Below, one piece after another: positions 26,542-40,354 of a DNA stretch of 64,000 nt. The notes below the pieces were generated by a model, which was given only the letters and a program-made list of their open reading frames with translations, made no database searches and was not told the origin of the DNA. Source of the DNA: a virus; the IMG/VR virus record IMGVR_UViG_3300042197_004918, positions 96,001 to 160,000 of that record; one strand, given 5' to 3'. Numbering within the stretch: position 1 is the first letter of the stretch; each line of letters starts with the position of its first letter. The position numbers and the translations under genes are program-made.

Positions 26542-27051
26542 ATGGACGAAGATGTGAGAGAATACGGTTGTTTAATGGCGTATATCGAACCGGCTTCTGC
26601 GAATAAAGTGGTGGAGCTTGGAAAAAAGATTATACCTCAATCAATTCTCTACGAGGTTCCTGGTGAAGAATATGGTAGAGAGACAGAACCTCACGTCACC
26701 ATAAAGTATGGTTTCACCCGAGATTTGACCGACGAAGAAGTAAAGAAAATCATCGGAAAAACAAAATCATTCTCCGTAGTCGCTGAAGGCCTAAGCACGT
26801 TTGATGGTAAAGAATTTCAAGTTGTAAAATTTGATATTCGCAGGGATGGGGTATTGTTATCCATGCGTAAGCTATGTGACGCATTTCCAAATAAAGACTC
26901 GCACCCCGACTTCCATCCTCACATGACATTGGCATACACAAAGCTAAAGTCATTCCCACACAAAAAGACCGGTCTATCTCTATCCTTTCGAGTAAACAAA
27001 TTTGTCTACTCTCCTATAACTGGAAAAAAGAGAGACTATAACCTATCTTAA
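26542..27051 (+). CDS. 2H phosphoesterase, T4 gp57B/Acb1-like
   Basis: Two HxT motifs PHVTIKYG and PHMTLAY; GCLM N-terminus. Confidence 0.75.
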   Translation: MDEDVREYGCLMAYIEPASANKVVELGKKIIPQSILYEVPGEEYGRETEPHVTIKYGFTRDLTDEEVKKIIGKTKSFSVVAEGLSTFDGKEFQVVKFDIRRDGVLLSMRKLCDAFPNKDSHPDFHPHMTLAYTKLKSFPHKKTGLSLSFRVNKFVYSPITGKKRDYNLS

Positions 27052-30750: not shown

Positions 30751-30827
30751 GGTCACGTAGCCCAACGGCAGGAGGCGGGAGTCTTAGAAGCTCTACAGTG
30801 GGGGTTCAAATCCCTCCGTGACCACCA
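30751..30827 (+). tRNA. tRNA-Leu(TAG), short variable loop
   Basis: Loop CTTAGAA, CCA. Confidence 0.88.
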
Positions 30828-31248
30828 TTTTGTTTTTTCTTCTCCAGTTTGGTGTTATGGAATGGCAATTAGGACATAGAAGTTTTAAGTTTTGGTTTTG
30901 ATTATTTTTCTTGTTTCCATCCACATGATGAACCTCAAGCGTTATTGGTTCTCCCAACCAATCCGCAGTCGAGCATCGTTCGCATTTTAATCCTCTCTCT
31001 TTAATGAGACAGTTTCTACGAGCGGTTGCGGAAGAATAATCTTCTAAAGATTTCAAAGATTTACCCTTATTCCACAGTTGATGTGAAAAATGACTTATAT
31101 CAAGATTCAATCGTTCAATATGAAGTTTAACGGACCCCTGAGTCCCGCCGGCTTGAACTAATCCAAGATTTTTCAAAACTTGACTATAAGCACGACTTTT
31201 GGAAACAGCAACTTTTAATTCTTCGTCTGAGTATGTTCTTTTTTTCAT
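30793..31248 (-). mobile_element. free-standing HNH homing endonuclease, antisense, ending inside tRNA-Leu(TAG)
   Basis: CERC..LEVHHVDGNKKNN..NLKLLCPNCH; last codons VVTEGFEPPL* are the tRNA antisense. Confidence 0.88.
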
Positions 31249-31304
31249 ATCAATAAATATGAAACGGTAGACGAATAACACAATATTTATGTGTCAACCA
31301 TTTT

Positions 31305-31548
31305 GAAAACGTGAGCGTGATAAAACGCAATGGGAACTAGACCACAACGAACCGGGAAGAAATGAAAGGTCGATAAACTATAGTTCTCATGTCGATTGAG
31401 GCGGTGCGATAATCCGATGGCGAGCGGACGCTCGTTGTGATTGGAAACAATCATACTATGGGGAACTAAGCGGTGATATATCACAAGGCACCCATAGCGC
31501 AGGGCCAGTCTTAGACACATACGGGTCCGAACCCCGTCGTTTTCACCA
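31305..31548 (+). ncRNA. giant (244-nt) tRNA-like RNA
   Basis: Acceptor GAAAACG/CGTTTTC-A-CCA, D-like hairpin, T arm ACGGG-TCCGAAC-CCCGT, ~190-nt structured insert. Confidence 0.65.
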
Positions 31549-31550
31549 TT

Positions 31551-31783
31551 TTGAAGTAGTAGGCTTAGAAGCAGCCATCTTTAATCAGCGAATCGAAACG
31601 CTGGCGACGACGCCTCCGTGCAACACCGACATTACGATTGGATGTTGTGAACGAGGTGATACATAAGAAGATATAGAGAGATAATAGTCTTGTGTATTGC
31701 CGTCCAGTATCTCCGCAGAAAGTAAACGGATACTCCGTAACTGGTAAGGTCCAATTATTCCTTGGCGTAAAAGCAGACTTCAA
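31551..31783 (+). ncRNA. 23S rRNA GTPase-associated-centre (H43/H44) mimic RNA, copy 1
   Basis: TTGAAG/CTTCAA closing helix; GTAGGCTTAGAAGCAGCCATCTTTAA ... GCGTAAAAGCAGAC. Confidence 0.75.
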
Positions 31784-31786
31784 TAT

Positions 31787-31863
31787 CCATCCGTCGCCTA
31801 ACTTGGTATGGCATCTCATTTGGGGTGAGAAATAATCTCGGTTCAAATCCGGGCGGGTGGACC
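31787..31863 (+). tRNA. tRNA-Pro(TGG)
   Basis: C1:G72, loop TTTGGGG. Confidence 0.88.
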
Positions 31864-31864
31864 T

Positions 31865-32132
31865 GATTAGAAGAAAGTAGGCTTAGAAGCAGCCATCTTT
31901 TAAAAAGTGACGAGTGGAAAAAGTATCTGTTGCAACAGAGAAATAAGCGTAACGGGTTTGTCAAGTCCCCGACGTATAACCACAGGGAATATAAATCCAA
32001 AAAACGATGTAAATAGTTACGGTGGGACAAGCAAGGTTGACCAACTAATGTAGAATAACGAGTGTCTAAGGGGTTCTACAAATGACTATTTTACCCTTTA
32101 ACAGTCTTTGGCGTCATAGCATACTTCTAATC
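31865..32132 (+). ncRNA. 23S rRNA GTPase-associated-centre (H43/H44) mimic RNA, copy 2
   Basis: GATTAGAAG/CTTCTAATC closing helix; AAAGTAGGCTTAGAAGCAGCCATCTTTTAAA ... GCGTCATAGCATAC. Confidence 0.75.
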
Positions 32133-32137
32133 TTTAT

Positions 32138-32208
32138 AGCGTGGCTACTGGGTAGTGCGGAAACTCCAAATCTCTGCTTCGTCGGTTCGATTCCGACTCA
32201 CGCTGCCA
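32138..32208 (+). tRNA. tRNA-Trp(CCA), shrunken D arm and extended anticodon stem
   Basis: Loop CTCCAAA, G73, CCA. Confidence 0.75.
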
Positions 32209-32239
32209 GTGGTGTCAGTAACACAAAACTATTGATTAT

Positions 32240-32355
32240 CGCAGTTAGGGCAAAGATACGAGCCGCCACGGTATGGACTGTGGAGGGGTGTGTGAGACGA
32301 GATTTGACGCTGGAATCTATCACTGTTAACAGGTTAAAGTCCTGTAGCTGCGACC
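32240..32355 (+). ncRNA. enlarged (116-nt) tRNA-like RNA
   Basis: Acceptor CGCAGTT/AGCTGCG-A-CC, T arm ACAGG-TTAAAGT-CCTGT, extra hairpins. Confidence 0.55.
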
Positions 32356-32363
32356 TTAATTTT

Positions 32364-32438
32364 CGGGATGTAATGTCAGTGGCAGACGGCCGAGCCTGGA
32401 ACTCGGAGGTCGCAGGTTCGAGTCCTGTCATCCCGACC
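32364..32438 (+). tRNA. tRNA-Pro(TGG) with C33/A37
   Basis: C1:G72, A73, loop CCTGGAA. Confidence 0.78.
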
Positions 32439-32503
32439 GTGTGAGTGTGCATACAGAACTAATCGGGACAAATGCCGAAAAGTAATCCGAGTTCACATAT
32501 AAT

Positions 32504-32575
32504 GGTCTGTTCGTCTATCGGCTAGGACGATGCCCTTTCAAGGCGTAAAGATGGGTTCGATTCCCATACGGACTA
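32504..32575 (+). tRNA. tRNA-Glu(TTC), no encoded CCA
   Basis: Loop CTTTCAA. Confidence 0.9.
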
Positions 32576-32577
32576 CA

Positions 32578-32826
32578 GTTTAACACGGTCGATCTATAGC
32601 GGGTGTAGAAATACATCTGAGGAAGTTCGCGCCACTAAAGCAGTTGATTGGGAGAATCGGCCGAGAGCAGAAATGCCGGTCGCAAAGACAGCCGATTCGT
32701 TAATACCACACAATAAGTGCAAGCCAAACAGAGCCGAGGGTAGTGCTTCCCGTTATGGTAGGCTCGGGTTGGTGCATAGTCAAATTATAGAATAAAACAG
32801 AAGCGCGGCTACATGATATGTTAAAC
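32578..32826 (+). ncRNA. rnpB: RNase P RNA, reduced (~250 nt)
   Basis: P1 GTTTAACA/TGTTAAAC; CR-I GAGGAAGTTCGCGC pairs with CR-V ACAGAAGCGCGGCTA (P4); GTGCAAGCCAAACAG resembles the GAGCAAGGCCAAAUAG element. Confidence 0.8.
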
Positions 32827-32869
32827 CATTTTTGATTGACTTGTCGTTTGAGATGTCCTATCATTTTAT

Positions 32870-33110
32870 TATGAATACTTCATCTATTGCAGAAACTTGT
32901 TCTTTTTGTAAAAACCCGGCTGCAGGATACAATATCATGGGAGATTTTTGCAGTGGACATAAAGAACTGTTTGTCAGAGATTGGACAAAACAGACTTTGT
33001 ATGACCTATTACTTGAATACCCGAATGAACGGGTGGATGGTTTGGTGAAGTTGTTCAATGGATATAAAAACTTCACAACACGCTGGCCCGATGGTAATAT
33101 CGTTGGATGA
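32870..33110 (+). CDS. hypothetical protein
   Basis: ORF from MNTSS, leaderless behind TTGACT..TATCAT. Confidence 0.55.
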
Positions 33111-33619
33111 AGAAATATCAAATGTATCTCAACGTAGGGGATTGGTCTGGTGATGGTCACGAAAAACACGACCGAGTTTTGGTTGAATCCAACCTTCCGG
33201 TTGCCGACGTCCAACAGGCATACAAGGATTCTTGTAAGTTGACCGGAGTTCAACTCAACGGTAATGAAGATTATACCGGTATTAAACGCGATTGGATGGC
33301 CGCTAGAGAAGTCCAGCTTCTCACCGAGTATGAGGAATCAAAAATTACTCCAAAACAATTTGAAGTGTTACAAAAACACGGATTGAAGTCGAAAATGATA
33401 GCCAAGTGGAACGGAGAAGATGATGCCGAAGAAACTGCTGAAGGTGGATATTATATCTACGGTGTCGATGCGTATGTCAAATTTTGGATATGGTTCACAT
33501 CACTCTCCAACAAAAAACTAAAAATTACCGAAATTCCTGACGATGAAAACATCCCCAATATCAACGGATACTGGGATAAAAATCTCAACGCGGGATTTGG
33601 ATATGGAATTTATTCTTAA
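33107..33619 (+). CDS. conserved phage hypothetical protein
   Basis: GDWSGDGHEK ... GYGIY motif. Confidence 0.75.
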   Translation: MKKYQMYLNVGDWSGDGHEKHDRVLVESNLPVADVQQAYKDSCKLTGVQLNGNEDYTGIKRDWMAAREVQLLTEYEESKITPKQFEVLQKHGLKSKMIAKWNGEDDAEETAEGGYYIYGVDAYVKFWIWFTSLSNKKLKITEIPDDENIPNINGYWDKNLNAGFGYGIYS

Positions 33620-33624
33620 CTAAT

Positions 33625-33701
33625 GGTCAAGTGATGTAATTGGAAAACATCGTTTACTCAAAATAAACGTTTTGTGGGTTCAACTCCCATCTTGACTACC
33701 A
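33625..33701 (+). tRNA. tRNA-Leu(CAA), second copy
   Basis: Near-duplicate of 29605-29680; CCA. Confidence 0.88.
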
Positions 33702-34320
33702 ATTTCTTTGCTCGTCGGTAGTTTCGTCCGTTCTCAAGTCCGACCTTTTTAAGAGCTTGGTGGATATTTTCCGAAGATTTTAACGATTCAATCAACTCTT
33801 CATCAGAAACATTTCTTTTGATTTTATTTCTTCCACCATAAGTGGGTGTTATGGAATGACAGTTCGGACACAACAATCTTAGATTTTCACGAGTATTGTT
33901 TCTTCTGTCTCCGTTAATATGGTCTAATTGAAGAGACAGTTTAACCCCATTCCAACTATCAATTCCACACAAACATTTGTCGGATTGTTCAGATGAAATC
34001 AAAGATTTGATAACGTTTTTACTTAAAAGTTCAAATGGAGTTTTGGAAATTCTATCGTCTAAAGATTTCCGAGAAGCTATAACCGCCTTAATTCTATCAT
34101 CGTTTGTAAAAACTTTTCGTCTTGAGTCAAACCCCGAAACGAATCCTCTGCCGGGGGATGATTTACCTGTCAAGGTTTTAGACACCTTTTCGTTTATCTC
34201 CTTTCTCTTATTTTTGGTTGCAAACGACCTAGAACATTTAATAGAACAGAATCGTCCGCTTCCAATAATAATTGAAAAGTCGGAATTACAATTTTCACAA
34301 GATTTTATCACAGAGTTCAT
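33658..34320 (-). mobile_element. free-standing HNH homing endonuclease, antisense, ending inside tRNA-Leu(CAA)
   Basis: CENC..FCSIKC zinc finger; LQLDHINGDRRNNTRENLRLLCPNCH; last codons LVVKMGVEPTKRLF* are the tRNA antisense. Confidence 0.88.
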
Positions 34321-34364
34321 ATAGACATAAATATATCTCTGTAGGTTCAAAAGCAAAAATATTT

Positions 34365-34440
34365 GCGGATGTAGCTCAACTGGCAGAGCGCTTGCCTTCC
34401 AAGCAGGCTGTTGTGGGTTCAACTCCCATCATCCGCTCCA
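34365..34440 (+). tRNA. tRNA-Gly(TCC)
   Basis: Canonical cloverleaf, U73, CCA. Confidence 0.95.
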
Positions 34441-38783: not shown

Positions 38784-39041
38784 ATGAAAACAAAACTGTA
38801 GAATTGTAAAGAAGTCGTGTTTCACTTCAACAAGGGTCACCTGGCCAATCCAGAGATTCCTATGTGGGTGTTAAAAACAAAAGGCGAAAGCTACTATGTG
38901 AATCACGTCACCGCGAGTTGTTCTTGGACAACCAAGGAAACTCCCGACAATCCTACAACCAAAGGTTCTTTGAAGTTTAAGAACGTGGATGTGGAAATCA
39001 GTGAAGATAGAGAAGCGACAATTTTTGCGTCTGTAGTTTAA
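38784..39041 (+). CDS. conserved phage protein with in-frame TAG at codon 6 (MKTKL*NCKEVVFHFNK...)
   Basis: ATG 38784, TAG 38799-801, then open to TAA 39039-41 inside the suppressor tRNA. Confidence 0.6.
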
Positions 39042-39101
39042 TGGTCAGAACTGGCGCCTCTAAAACGCCGTGTGTGGGTTCGACTCCCATTGGACGCACC
39101 A
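39027..39101 (+). tRNA. amber suppressor tRNA (CTA)
   Basis: GGCGC-CTCTAAA-ACGCC anticodon arm, canonical D/T arms, A73-CCA. Confidence 0.78.
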
Positions 39102-39393: not shown

Positions 39394-40354
39394 GAAAGAC
39401 CTTAGATTAAAAACTCAACTGTATGATTGATACACAAATTAATCCGTTTACTGGTGACGATAGTGCGGTAAGACCGATGTGGGGTTGATTTAATCCACGT
39501 AGTTTTGAGGTGACTTATCATCCTCACGTTTTGTTGATTGTTCTTTGTAAGTAGAATTTGGGAGGCCTGACTCCCTTCAAGATAAACCGTCGTAAGACGG
39601 CTAAAGCAGAAACCCCCTAACGGGACTGCGCCACAGTAATGTGGACACTCAGGCAACTGACGAATCAGTGTCTTTCACTCAAAAGGTGGAAGTATGTCTG
39701 AAGCTGGATTGGTAAATGGTGATTGAGGGTAACACTGTAAATCATCTACTAACGGTACCGCCGAGCACTACTAATTCCTAACGGAACAGCCAAGAATAAG
39801 ATTCAAGTCAAACGTATAGATACAAGTCCGCAAGCAAGTGTTTATATGTAGAATGATAGAGAGTGGCCCAGGGTAACCGAGGACATAATCTTGAAATTCG
39901 GTGAAGTATCCGCAAGAGAAACACAAATGGTGTGTGGTATATTGGTTCCCAAAAGGAATTGATGTCACAAGCAACGCACGTCATTGTTAGGTGCATATTA
40001 TATCATTGTTAGATAAACTATATACAAAAAAGCCAAGTCGTTGCTTGTGTTCGTCGAAAAGAACGTAACTCTGAGGCCGTAAGGTAACTCAGACAACGAA
40101 GCGCTCGCAAGGTGTTAGTTGTTGATCCGAGTTTGGACGTGGTCCGCAAGACCTAATTGCTCGCAAGGCAACCGTTTGAATAGAGGTTGATTAGATGGAC
40201 ATTAAAGATGAAAAGCCGCATCTCTAAAAAGGCCGTTCTGTCAAATACAGACATAAACCGTAAGGTTGTGGATGTGGATACGTTGGGAAAGCAGCCCGCA
40301 AGGTTGTAATAATCCAATCAAAGGTTGACACGAAACACTGTAGTCTCAGGTTTC
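39394..40354 (+). ncRNA. large (~960-nt) ncRNA, probably GOLLD
   Basis: No credible ORF; many GCAA/GTAA-tetraloop hairpins; 3' GGGAAA..ATAATCCAATCAAAGG..TGTAGTCTCAG resembles the GOLLD 3' domain as I recall it; tRNA-adjacent. Confidence 0.6.

Follow-up and report, generated by a model that had tools for sequence, protein, structure and literature searches.

Two predicted RNAs of a phage tRNA array rebuild the uL11-binding domain of 23S rRNA around unrelated arms

A transfer RNA (tRNA) array in a 64,000-nucleotide (nt) stretch of DNA from a freshwater phage encodes two predicted RNAs that appear to reproduce the GTPase-associated centre of bacterial 23S ribosomal RNA (rRNA). The stretch, hereafter the window, covers positions 96,001 to 160,000 of IMG/VR virus record IMGVR_UViG_3300042197_004918, which is 173.8 kilobases (kb) long; our record-wide searches span the whole 174 kb. 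Judged from sequence, each RNA copies the 58-nt uL11-binding domain (the top of helix H42, with H43 and H44; nt 1051 to 1108 in Escherichia coli numbering) and closes on itself; a single extra helix of free length and content sits between 1090 and 1091. Both copies belong to a large family of phage-encoded non-coding RNAs for which we found no earlier description, and what is new here is the occurrence of two diverged paralogues in one phage, together with their neighbours. We consider it an even question whether these RNAs bind host uL11 and act as an off-ribosome imitation of the stalk base.

Results

The two copies

Copy 1 runs from 31551 to 31783 (+ strand; 233 nt, a centre mimic with a 174-nt arm) and copy 2 from 31865 to 32132 (+ strand; 268 nt, a centre mimic with a 201-nt arm), both matched by covariance model R1, described below. 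Between them lies a tRNA-Pro(UGG) gene at 31787 to 31863 (+ strand; ARAGORN, and 46.1 bits against the Rfam tRNA model). An earlier note on this DNA, made from the letters alone, had observed that the two RNAs around this tRNA share a 25-mer, and AGTAGGCTTAGAAGCAGCCATCTTT is indeed present at 31558 to 31582 and again at 31876 to 31900. Both copies hold GGCUUAGAAGCAGCCAUC, 18 nt identical to E. coli 23S 1062 to 1079 (H43 with A1067), and on the 3' side of an arm of some 170 to 200 nt each reads GGCGU(A/C)A(A/U)AGCA, the H44 loop with position 1095. The 3' motifs, TTGGCGTAAAAGCAGACTTC ending at 31781 in copy 1 and TTGGCGTCATAGCATACTTC ending at 32127 in copy 2, and the terminal helix of each RNA stand in the sequence as the earlier note had described them, and its quotation of E. 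coli 23S 1051 to 1108 agrees with the 23S sequence. With two mismatches allowed, the 15-nt core GGCTTAGAAGCAGCC occurs twice in the window versus 0.03 times in shuffles, and nowhere else across the 174-kb record.

In copy 1 the closing helix, which stands for the top of H42, is formed by TTGAAG (31551 to 31556) and CTTCAA (31778 to 31783), six Watson-Crick pairs on the + strand. The H43 mimic and junction (31557 to 31589, + strand) comprise a GGC/GCC stem, the loop UUAGAAGCA with A1067 at 31567, and the series U1057, A1058-U1080, G1059-C1079, U1060 and A1061, followed by UUUAAU, C1087, A1088, G and C. The inserted arm (31590 to 31763, + strand) rises from a base helix of GAAU (31590 to 31593) and AUUC (31757 to 31760), and the H44 tip and closing strand (31764 to 31783, + strand) supply G1090, the pairs G1091-C1100 and C1092-G1099, the loop GUAAAA with A1095 at 31769, then A1101, G1102, A1103 and CUUCAA.

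Copy 2 is closed by a helix of 9 base pairs (bp) between GATTAGAAG (31865 to 31873, + strand) and CTTCTAATC (32124 to 32132, + strand), which written as RNA are GAUUAGAAG and CUUCUAAUC at the same positions. Its H43 mimic and junction (31874 to 31908, + strand; A1067 at 31885) hold A1057-U1081, A1058-U1080, G1059-C1079, U1060 and A1061, followed by UUUUAAA, A1087, A1088, G and U1090. The arm (31909 to 32109, + strand) has the base helix GAC (31909 to 31911) and GUC (32104 to 32106) and ends in a UUU bulge (32107 to 32109). In the H44 tip and closing strand (32110 to 32132, + strand) a GC/GC stem carries the loop GUCAUA, with G1090, A1101, U1102 and A1103 beside it and CUUCUAAUC at the end; C replaces A1095 at 32115. 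Each copy therefore has its own closing helix directly outside 1055/1104, of 6 bp and shifted by one position in copy 1, and of 9 bp in copy 2.

At 1087:1102, 30 of 35 aligned family members have G-C, whereas copy 1 has C-G (31586:31776) and copy 2 has A-U (31905:32122), the sole A-U at this place among the 35; two different double changes have each kept the rRNA pair. The compensatory swap that the earlier note reported at 1058:1080 of copy 2 is real but not limited to it, since both copies have A1058-U1080. What had been taken for the loss of one whole pair from copy 1 is instead the absence of one junction U from the 1081 to 1083 run, with the register of the closing helix moved by one so that G1056 pairs with C1104.

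The same note placed the inserts at the H43/H44 junction. The inserts are unrelated and the two halves do stand in the right order, but the place is different. Likeness to rRNA continues through UUUAA-N-G1087-A1088-G-U, which matches Clostridia-type 23S AAAGAGUGCG (true Clostridia 23S reads AAAGAGUGCGUAAUAGCUCAC); since G-A-G-U corresponds to Clostridia-type rRNA 1087 to 1090, the arm is inserted between 1090 and 1091, within the 5' strand of H44. In the register of the arm base, the third and fourth nt after A1088 pair with the fifth and sixth nt before G1091, and an offset matrix over 64 members finds these positions (+3:-5 and +4:-6) paired in 98%. Copy 2 fits this pattern fully (GAC/GUC, UUU, G), and copy 1 fits it with variants: a C at 1090 paired with G, GAAU/AUUC, and C-U-U where the family has its UUU bulge.

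Structure and covariation

We tested a 22-pair consensus (closing helix, H43 base, GGC/GCC stem, 1087:1102, arm base and H44 stem) on 35 aligned members against 500 shuffles. The pairs were formed in 90.7% of cells versus 66.8% in shuffles, and the covariation score was 0.604 versus 0.168, a value that none of the 500 shuffles reached; sliding the 3' partners by one to three columns reduced it to 0.20 or less. Fifteen of the 22 pairs covary, among them all eight closing pairs, 1057:1081, 1058:1080 and four arm-base pairs. The 5' part of the consensus reads closing strand, G1055-R-A-N-G1059-U1060-N, GGCUUAGAAGCAGCC, A-U-C-N-U-Y-U-A-A-R, G1087-A1088-G-U, and the 3' part, beyond the arm, UUU-G, G1091-C1092, GUAAYA, G-C-A1101-C1102-A-C, closing strand. 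A signature of the family's own is G1090 (89%) with A1101 (98%), where rRNA has another pair; both copies carry it (G1090 at 31764 and 32110, A1101 at 31775 and 32121).

Covariance model R1 was built from 22 members from other phages, with the window sequences left out. It matched copy 2 at 31868 to 32129 (77.6 bits, E 2e-20) and copy 1 end to end (63 bits, E 2.5e-16), each over model positions 1 to 161, and these were the only two matches both in the window and in the whole record. As a gauge of how close the mimicry is, R1 scores E. coli 23S 1050 to 1109 at 63 bits. The covariance model and the covariation test on phage members had been proposed in the earlier note, and their outcome bears out its central idea of stand-alone RNAs that rebuild the uL11-binding centre around different inserts. 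It had also argued for selected structure rather than rRNA debris; the covariation, the G1090/A1101 signature and the wide spread among phages indicate that the structure of both RNAs is indeed under selection.

Conserved nucleotides and the uL11 interface

Conservation percentages come from members that had been anchored on the opposite half of the RNA. U1060, G1063, U1066, G1071, C1072, G1093 and A1098 are invariant, and G1059, A1077, A1073 and U1094 reach 98 to 99%. Less strict are A1067 (83%, with G in 13%), G1068 (81%), A1070 (83%) and A1096 (78%); position 1095 is A in 92% and C in 3% of members, and 1097 is free (48%). We take the invariant set to be the builders of the tertiary fold of the 58-nt domain, namely U1060 with A1088, and G1071 and C1072 in triples with 1091:1100 and 1092:1099, contacts that are reportedly those of the 1999 structures of Wimberly and Conn. 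These partners (U1060/A1088, and G1071/C1072 with 1091:1100 and 1092:1099) are retained, as is the junction. To our knowledge A1067 and A1095 are near-universal in rRNA; in the family they are conserved well above the free positions and below the rRNA level.

In the rRNA, the interface with L11's C-terminal domain comprises 1058 to 1060, 1062 to 1065, 1075 to 1083 and 1088, and A1067 and A1095, both exposed, make up the thiostrepton pocket together with the L11 N-terminal domain (PMC1802607). The C-terminal-domain interface nucleotides are present in both copies, except for one U of 1081 to 1083 in copy 1. This pattern fits selection for the fold and for putative uL11 binding in all members, and selection for the factor-facing surface in most members only. 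The earlier note had also given weight to U1061A, a change known to stabilise the E. coli rRNA fragment (PMC1802607), as a selected trait. Both copies do have A1061, but across the family the position is U in 65%, A in 22% and G in 9% of members, so that U1061A is no family trait.

Extent of the family

The family was traced by two pattern scans of IMG/VR viral contigs, and its counts are lower bounds. The exact 18-mer was found in at least 117 contigs; none of the at least 117 loci listed is true 23S, and all depart from rRNA after ...AUC-N-UUUAAAGAGU-R. Nearly every match has the corresponding 3' half, which gives 99 distinct units, the failures being locus ends or two chance matches. With the second scan, for the family-specific 3' word TTTGGCGTAAYAGCACAC that true 23S does not contain, the total rises to at least 181 distinct units in at least 210 loci, all of them free-standing. 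In large phages of fresh water, soil, gut and sea the family is common. When the same 3' word was sought in 185,579 species genomes, 29 of 44 matches proved to be members at 65 bits or more, mostly on contigs of metagenome-assembled genomes (MAGs) with tRNA arrays or in prophages.

Genes for tRNA occur in 91 of the 117 listed loci, in 75 cases at a distance of no more than 500 nt, and 718 of 720 tRNAs share the strand of the family unit. About one-third of the units that have a tRNA up- or downstream in the locus lie within 10 nt of it, and no tRNA identity is favoured beside family units in this set. Two units in one fetched locus were seen in 3 of the at least 210 loci, and separation by a single tRNA in this window only. 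The other two such loci among those listed, L249 and L134, the latter a 'Candidatus Limenecus' MAG contig, each pair one short with one long unit, 0.9 to 1 kb apart.

Cultured phages also carry the family. Full-length members lie in unannotated gaps of Pseudomonas putida phage pf16 (KU873925.1, 29417 to 29603, - strand, with tRNA-Asn and tRNA-Pro on either side; 95 bits), Cronobacter phage GAP32 (JN882285.1, 289516 to 289757, + strand; 78 bits) and Aeromonas phage 4_4572 (MK813943.1, 75082 to 75363, + strand; 75 bits), and BLAST indicates further members in Serratia phage BF, Erwinia pEa_SNUABM phages, Xanthomonas phages XacN1 and XbC2, and Pseudomonas phages Milchi and Astolliot. The GenBank members from cultured phages sit either in such gaps or beneath a "hypothetical protein". 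A 45-nt core query was required to find them: when all 600 nt of the stretch were compared by blastn with 50,697 phage records, only tRNA-Pro was matched.

We found no sign that the family has been described. The Rfam search that the earlier note had suggested matched no described family: Rfam 15 has nothing on 31551 to 31786 or 31865 to 32132, whether at gathering scores over the whole window or at E of 10 or less over 30800 to 34400. Full-text literature searches by topic and by core sequence returned only papers on the rRNA domain and no such family, and a 224-motif survey holds no mention of a family of GTPase-centre mimics.

By its own signature and by prophage copies unlike their hosts' rRNA, the family would be a lineage independent of host rRNA. 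In three bacterial genomes with prophage members, R1 scores the hosts' true centres at 50 to 70 bits, and the prophage copies are without the host-specific rRNA variants; in Flintibacter, for example, the host reads CCACUCAUUAAAAG and its prophage copy CCAUCAUCUAAGG.

Arms and their modules

Arms range from 36 to 358 nt across the family and are free in content, with recurring module types; the most compact members have 36 to 55 nt between 1079 and the UUU bulge and retain the entire core. The arms of copies 1 and 2 are unrelated to each other, which marks the copies as old paralogues rather than a recent tandem duplication, and the shared 25-mer as a reflection of family-wide conservation. 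In the 3' part of the copy 1 arm lies module A (31721 to 31751, + strand; 31 nt, AGUA..GAU-ACU-[CCG-UAAC-UGG]-UAAG-GUC), a 3-bp hairpin with a tetraloop set inside an asymmetric AC/UAAG loop. It is common to more than 20 members in other phages, and its pairs 310:330 and 317:322 covary in a 10-member alignment; a reading of the module as a K-turn was rejected by eye, there being no G-A/A-G tandem. For the copy 2 arm no relative was found among the 181 family units compared (best E 0.017), nor in copy 1.

When the arms and flanks of both copies were compared with E. coli 23S, 16S and 5S rRNA by blastn-short, only matches of 8 to 11 nt or matches derived from the core were returned. Smith-Waterman scores of ten arms against 23S lay within those of shuffles, and a likeness of arms to H41/H42 that had been noticed by eye was therefore dropped. 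The sarcin-ricin word AGUACGAGAGGACC, with up to two changes, was present in only 2 of 119 units; a looser sarcin-ricin-like hairpin pattern occurs in 8 units, no more often than in the background. In four distinct long-arm members (L035, 3687 to 4069, - strand; L051, 3418 to 3809, + strand; L063; and L090) the hairpin nevertheless stands at a constant 250 to 274 nt after the H43 core, with AGUAC-GGGA-GGAA and AGUAC-GAAA-GGAG as examples, bordered by complementary stems. Neither window copy has such a hairpin.

Variation and expression

A 139-kb contig from another study carries the same locus at 98% identity. Among its 34 listed substitutions, one falls in copy 1 and four (plus one deletion) in copy 2, and all of these lie in the arms or at G1090A, where the pair with U1090 is kept; 7 fall in tRNA-Pro and 19 in the 76 nt from 32272 to 32347, part of the 155-nt spacer after tRNA-Trp. 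The tRNA-Pro between the copies, with 7 of its 77 positions changed, has thus varied far more than the neighbouring RNAs, and it has the second-lowest Rfam tRNA score of the array (46 bits). The gene is possibly drifting, or its main use may be as a processing signal.

Of the words sampled from the stretch, ten public sequencing runs contain at least half. Two come from a possible source sample and the remaining eight, from fresh water and drinking water, belong to three further studies; riverine and wetland runs hold 40 to 48%. Two of the public runs labelled RNA-Seq are probably DNA. The high depth of the one true metatranscriptome over 31832 to 31959 most probably derives from true 23S contigs of the same sample that match the conserved core. 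In one run (X18) a contig of low depth connects 31336 with 31745, with five other letters in between, and skips 31337 to 31744; a variant of this kind would delete the body of the tRNA-shaped RNA described below and most of copy 1, but the joint is too weak to be accepted as one (88% likeness, a 37-nt side), and DNA of another organism is possible.

The tRNA array

ARAGORN finds 24 tRNA genes, all on the + strand, at 28.7 to 40.5 kb of the window. Both RNAs adjoin tRNA or tRNA-like genes at 1 to 5 nt in the same orientation: tRNA-Pro begins 3 nt from the end of copy 1 and leaves 1 to 3 nt to the start of copy 2, and tRNA-Trp(CCA) (32138 to 32208, + strand; ARAGORN) follows 5 nt downstream of copy 2. 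Counts of promoters and terminators between the genes of the array stretch are at shuffle level.

Two nt upstream of copy 1 lies a 244-nt tRNA-shaped RNA with a 3' ACCA (31305 to 31548, + strand). Its minimum free energy (MFE) fold (-77.1 kcal/mol, z -3.74) pairs GAAAACG with CGUUUUC into a 7-bp acceptor stem and shows a D-like hairpin, a 10-bp arm that lacks an anticodon loop, a T arm with the 7-nt loop UCCGAAC, and a branched variable region of about 125 nt. ARAGORN (run with introns and a search for transfer-messenger RNA over 31250 to 31600) and Rfam make no call on it, and no relative was found among cultured phages.

Further RNAs lie in the same array. At 32581 to 32823 (+ strand), right after tRNA-Glu, there is a full-length sub-threshold match to the archaeal-type RNase P RNA RF00373 (34 bits versus a gathering score of 84, E 2e-8), whose alignment retains both P4 strands (GAGGAAGUUCGCGCC and AACAGAAGCGCGGCUAC) and other conserved blocks; we regard it, from its sequence, as a candidate compact phage RNase P RNA of 243 nt. 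GOLLD RNA (RF02032, 211 bits) is found at 39925 to 40352 (+ strand), just upstream of two tRNA-Ser genes and 8 kb downstream of the copies. With the tRNA-shaped RNA, the candidate RNase P RNA and GOLLD as neighbours, the array emerges as a dense island of non-coding RNA that holds at least four kinds of large non-coding RNA. Three genes of the array are tRNA-Pro(UGG) (29463, 31787 and 32364), and a tRNA with anticodon CUA (39027 to 39101, + strand), which ARAGORN labels 'Pyl', may be of the amber-suppressor type. An open reading frame (ORF) at 26542 to 27051 (+ strand), some 1.7 kb upstream of the array, belongs to the 2H phosphoesterase / 2'-5' RNA ligase (LigT) superfamily (PF13563, E 6.8e-10; Acb1 is matched faintly); it could have a role in RNA repair or against cyclic-nucleotide signalling.

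Discussion

In the scenario that we favour, the array would be transcribed as a single precursor, from which RNase P and the 3' tRNA-processing enzymes would free discrete RNAs of about 233 and 268 nt, with the 5' processing of tRNA-Trp setting the 3' end of copy 2 and the 244-nt RNA setting the 5' boundary of copy 1. The core would adopt the rRNA-domain fold and bind host uL11 through that protein's C-terminal domain. The resulting particle would imitate the stalk base of the ribosome away from the ribosome, and could divert uL11, which RelA needs for its activation, or other readers of the A1067/A1095 surface. Because their arms differ, the two RNAs might meet different partners or be brought to different places. 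That they bind the L10/L12 stalk is unlikely, since the closing helix has only about 6 to 9 bp and no H42/kink-turn part is included.

A number of observations weigh against uL11 binding by these RNAs. A cell holds many thousands of ribosome-bound uL11 molecules, so that titration would need very abundant RNA. The arm leaves the core beside A1088 of the uL11 interface and could hinder binding. Members depart from A1067 in 17% of cases and from A1095 in 8%, and copy 2 itself has C1095, which means that part of the family can do without the exact surface that faces factors and thiostrepton. The nearest-neighbour energy model disfavours the family fold of the core: copy 1 forced into that fold reaches -47.5 kcal/mol versus -66.1 unconstrained, and the MFE z-score, -3.2 for copy 1, is only -0.09 for copy 2. 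The rRNA domain itself relies on ions and tertiary contacts. A comparison of 4,295 ORFs (181 loci) by all-against-all blastp yielded no conserved partner gene, the largest ORF cluster (18 loci) consisting of antisense translations of tRNA genes, and no L11 gene was found in the record, which contains neither PF00298 nor PF03946. As to expression, the sole RNA evidence is a weak hint, a single 152-nt contig of depth 2.4 on 31966 to 32115 (copy 2) in one metatranscriptome, for which DNA carry-over is possible.

A wider proposal, which we put forward tentatively and regard as the less probable outcome, is that uL11-loaded centre mimics made from tRNA-array transcripts, some of them with a sarcin-ricin-like hairpin on the arm, are a general countermeasure of large phages. 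They would blunt the RelA-dependent alarm by diverting uL11 or uncharged-tRNA complexes, or absorb ribosome-disabling host enzymes that act at this site, and the two long-diverged paralogues of this phage would serve two partners.

The alternative that survives best, though we judge it unlikely, is that the RNAs are decoy substrates: they would soak up enzymes that attack this rRNA site (for example ADP-ribosyltransferases, nucleases or methyltransferases, whether of host defence or as competitor toxins) and so spare the ribosomes during phage replication. Phage tRNAs are thought to substitute for tRNAs hit by defence nucleases, and the location of these genes in tRNA arrays speaks for such a role. 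So does the high conservation of the H44 loop (G1093 100%, U1094 99%, A1095 92%, A1098 100%), as does the long-arm subgroup with its sarcin-ricin-like hairpin in a fixed place, another classic toxin target. We know of no anti-phage system aimed at the GTPase-associated centre, which counts against it, and a decoy would have to outcompete tens of thousands of ribosomes; the window copies are without the sarcin-ricin-like hairpin, and copy 2 is without A1095. A toxin against exactly this site does exist in Tre23, which ADP-ribosylates H44 at 1095 to 1098 and blocks the GTPase of EF-G (PMC8661411), but Tre23 is a type VI effector and not a phage defence.

It is improbable, though it merits weighing, that the centre fold serves only as a chassis, a compact, stable and nuclease-resistant base (with the uL11 clamp optional) for a variable arm that carries the function. 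Arms of 36 to 358 nt with recurring modules, including module A with its covariation in more than 20 other phages, would be expected of such a design, and the copies in this phage differ in their arms only, the loop positions 1067 to 1070 and 1096 to 1097 being relaxed relative to rRNA. Nearly armless members (36 to 55 nt) nevertheless retain the full core, A1067 and A1095 are still 83 to 92% conserved although they are exposed and have no role in the fold, and the copy 2 arm has neither relatives nor marked predicted stability.

A cis-regulatory rRNA mimic, an autoregulatory leader of the L10/L11-operon kind, would draw on textbook mimicry of rRNA sites by messenger RNA (mRNA) leaders and on the motif being the uL11 site. 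This reading is close to refuted and we hold it to be very improbable: there is no ribosomal protein gene nearby, and neither L11 domain occurs anywhere in the record; tRNA genes rather than ORFs flank the units; Rfam gives no leader match at E of 10 or less over 30800 to 34400; and the closing helix makes the unit self-contained. Debris, an assembly artefact or a chance likeness without function, which the 18 nt identical to 23S and the host rRNA contamination that does occur in phage records (we saw it among the core-query matches) might suggest, is refuted by the covariation and by the existence of the family, and it is further opposed by the lack of other rRNA in the record (no RF02541 match over 174 kb), the departure from 23S just outside the domain into a covarying closing helix, the compensatory changes at 1058:1080 and 1087:1102 in each copy, the G1090/A1101 signature, prophage copies unlike host rRNA, and the recurrence of the locus in the 139-kb contig of another study.

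The existence of this RNA suggests that phages act against translation, or against the surveillance of it, with RNA imitations of ribosome parts, in addition to their familiar tRNAs. The family also offers, for an RNA tertiary fold that is among the best studied, several hundred natural variants in which an insertion is tolerated at one site. The presence of unannotated members in cultured phages of Pseudomonas, Cronobacter, Serratia, Erwinia, Xanthomonas and Aeromonas makes the hypothesis testable, and this window adds the rare occurrence of two paralogues within a single phage, one tRNA apart.

As far as Rfam 15 and the searchable literature extend, no free-standing RNA that copies a ribosomal functional centre has been described. 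The closest known object is the 23S centre itself (E. coli 1051 to 1108, the 58- to 60-nt fragment that binds uL11 and thiostrepton), with which the phage RNAs share the order of elements and the helices, 18 identical nt, the H44 loop GUAAYA, the tertiary partners, and G1087-A1088-G-U as in Clostridia-type rRNA. Whereas rRNA continues into H42, the phage RNAs are free-standing and closed by their own helix of 6 to 9 bp; they carry a helix of 36 to 358 nt between 1090 and 1091, followed by the UUU bulge; they have G1090 and A1101 in place of the rRNA pair, with A1067 to A1070 and A1095 to A1097 less strict; and they are encoded among tRNA genes. Held against a bacterial 23S, the copies show no flanking rRNA (H41-H42, H45), and their H43 and H44 are not contiguous, being parted by arms of 174 and 201 nt.

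Examples of mRNA leaders that imitate rRNA binding sites are the L10 leader (Rfam RF00557) and, on the mRNA of the L11 operon, the L1 site. Like the phage RNAs they are off-ribosome RNAs that copy an rRNA protein-binding site, but they are cellular, control a ribosomal-protein gene downstream in cis, and imitate different sites (the kink-turn of H42 and the L1 stalk), whereas the phage RNAs have neither an ORF nor a ribosomal-protein gene and are a far more complete copy. Tre23 has the same domain as its target, H44 at 1095 to 1098, and acts between bacteria as a type VI effector (PMC8661411). GOLLD (RF02032) and ROOL resemble our RNAs in being phage-borne and in lying beside tRNA genes. They have no likeness in sequence or structure to the phage centre mimics, form RNA-only cages (10.1101/2024.12.08.627333) and copy no rRNA site. 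Among decoy or sponge RNAs are 6S RNA and CsrB. If the decoy reading holds, they and phage pseudo-ToxI would embody the same principle as the centre mimics, a look-alike that diverts a protein from its real target; the difference is that here the copied object is a ribosomal functional centre and the partner is putative. Pseudo-ToxI RNA mimics an antitoxin and so provides an instance of phages using RNA mimicry against host systems (PMC3475682).

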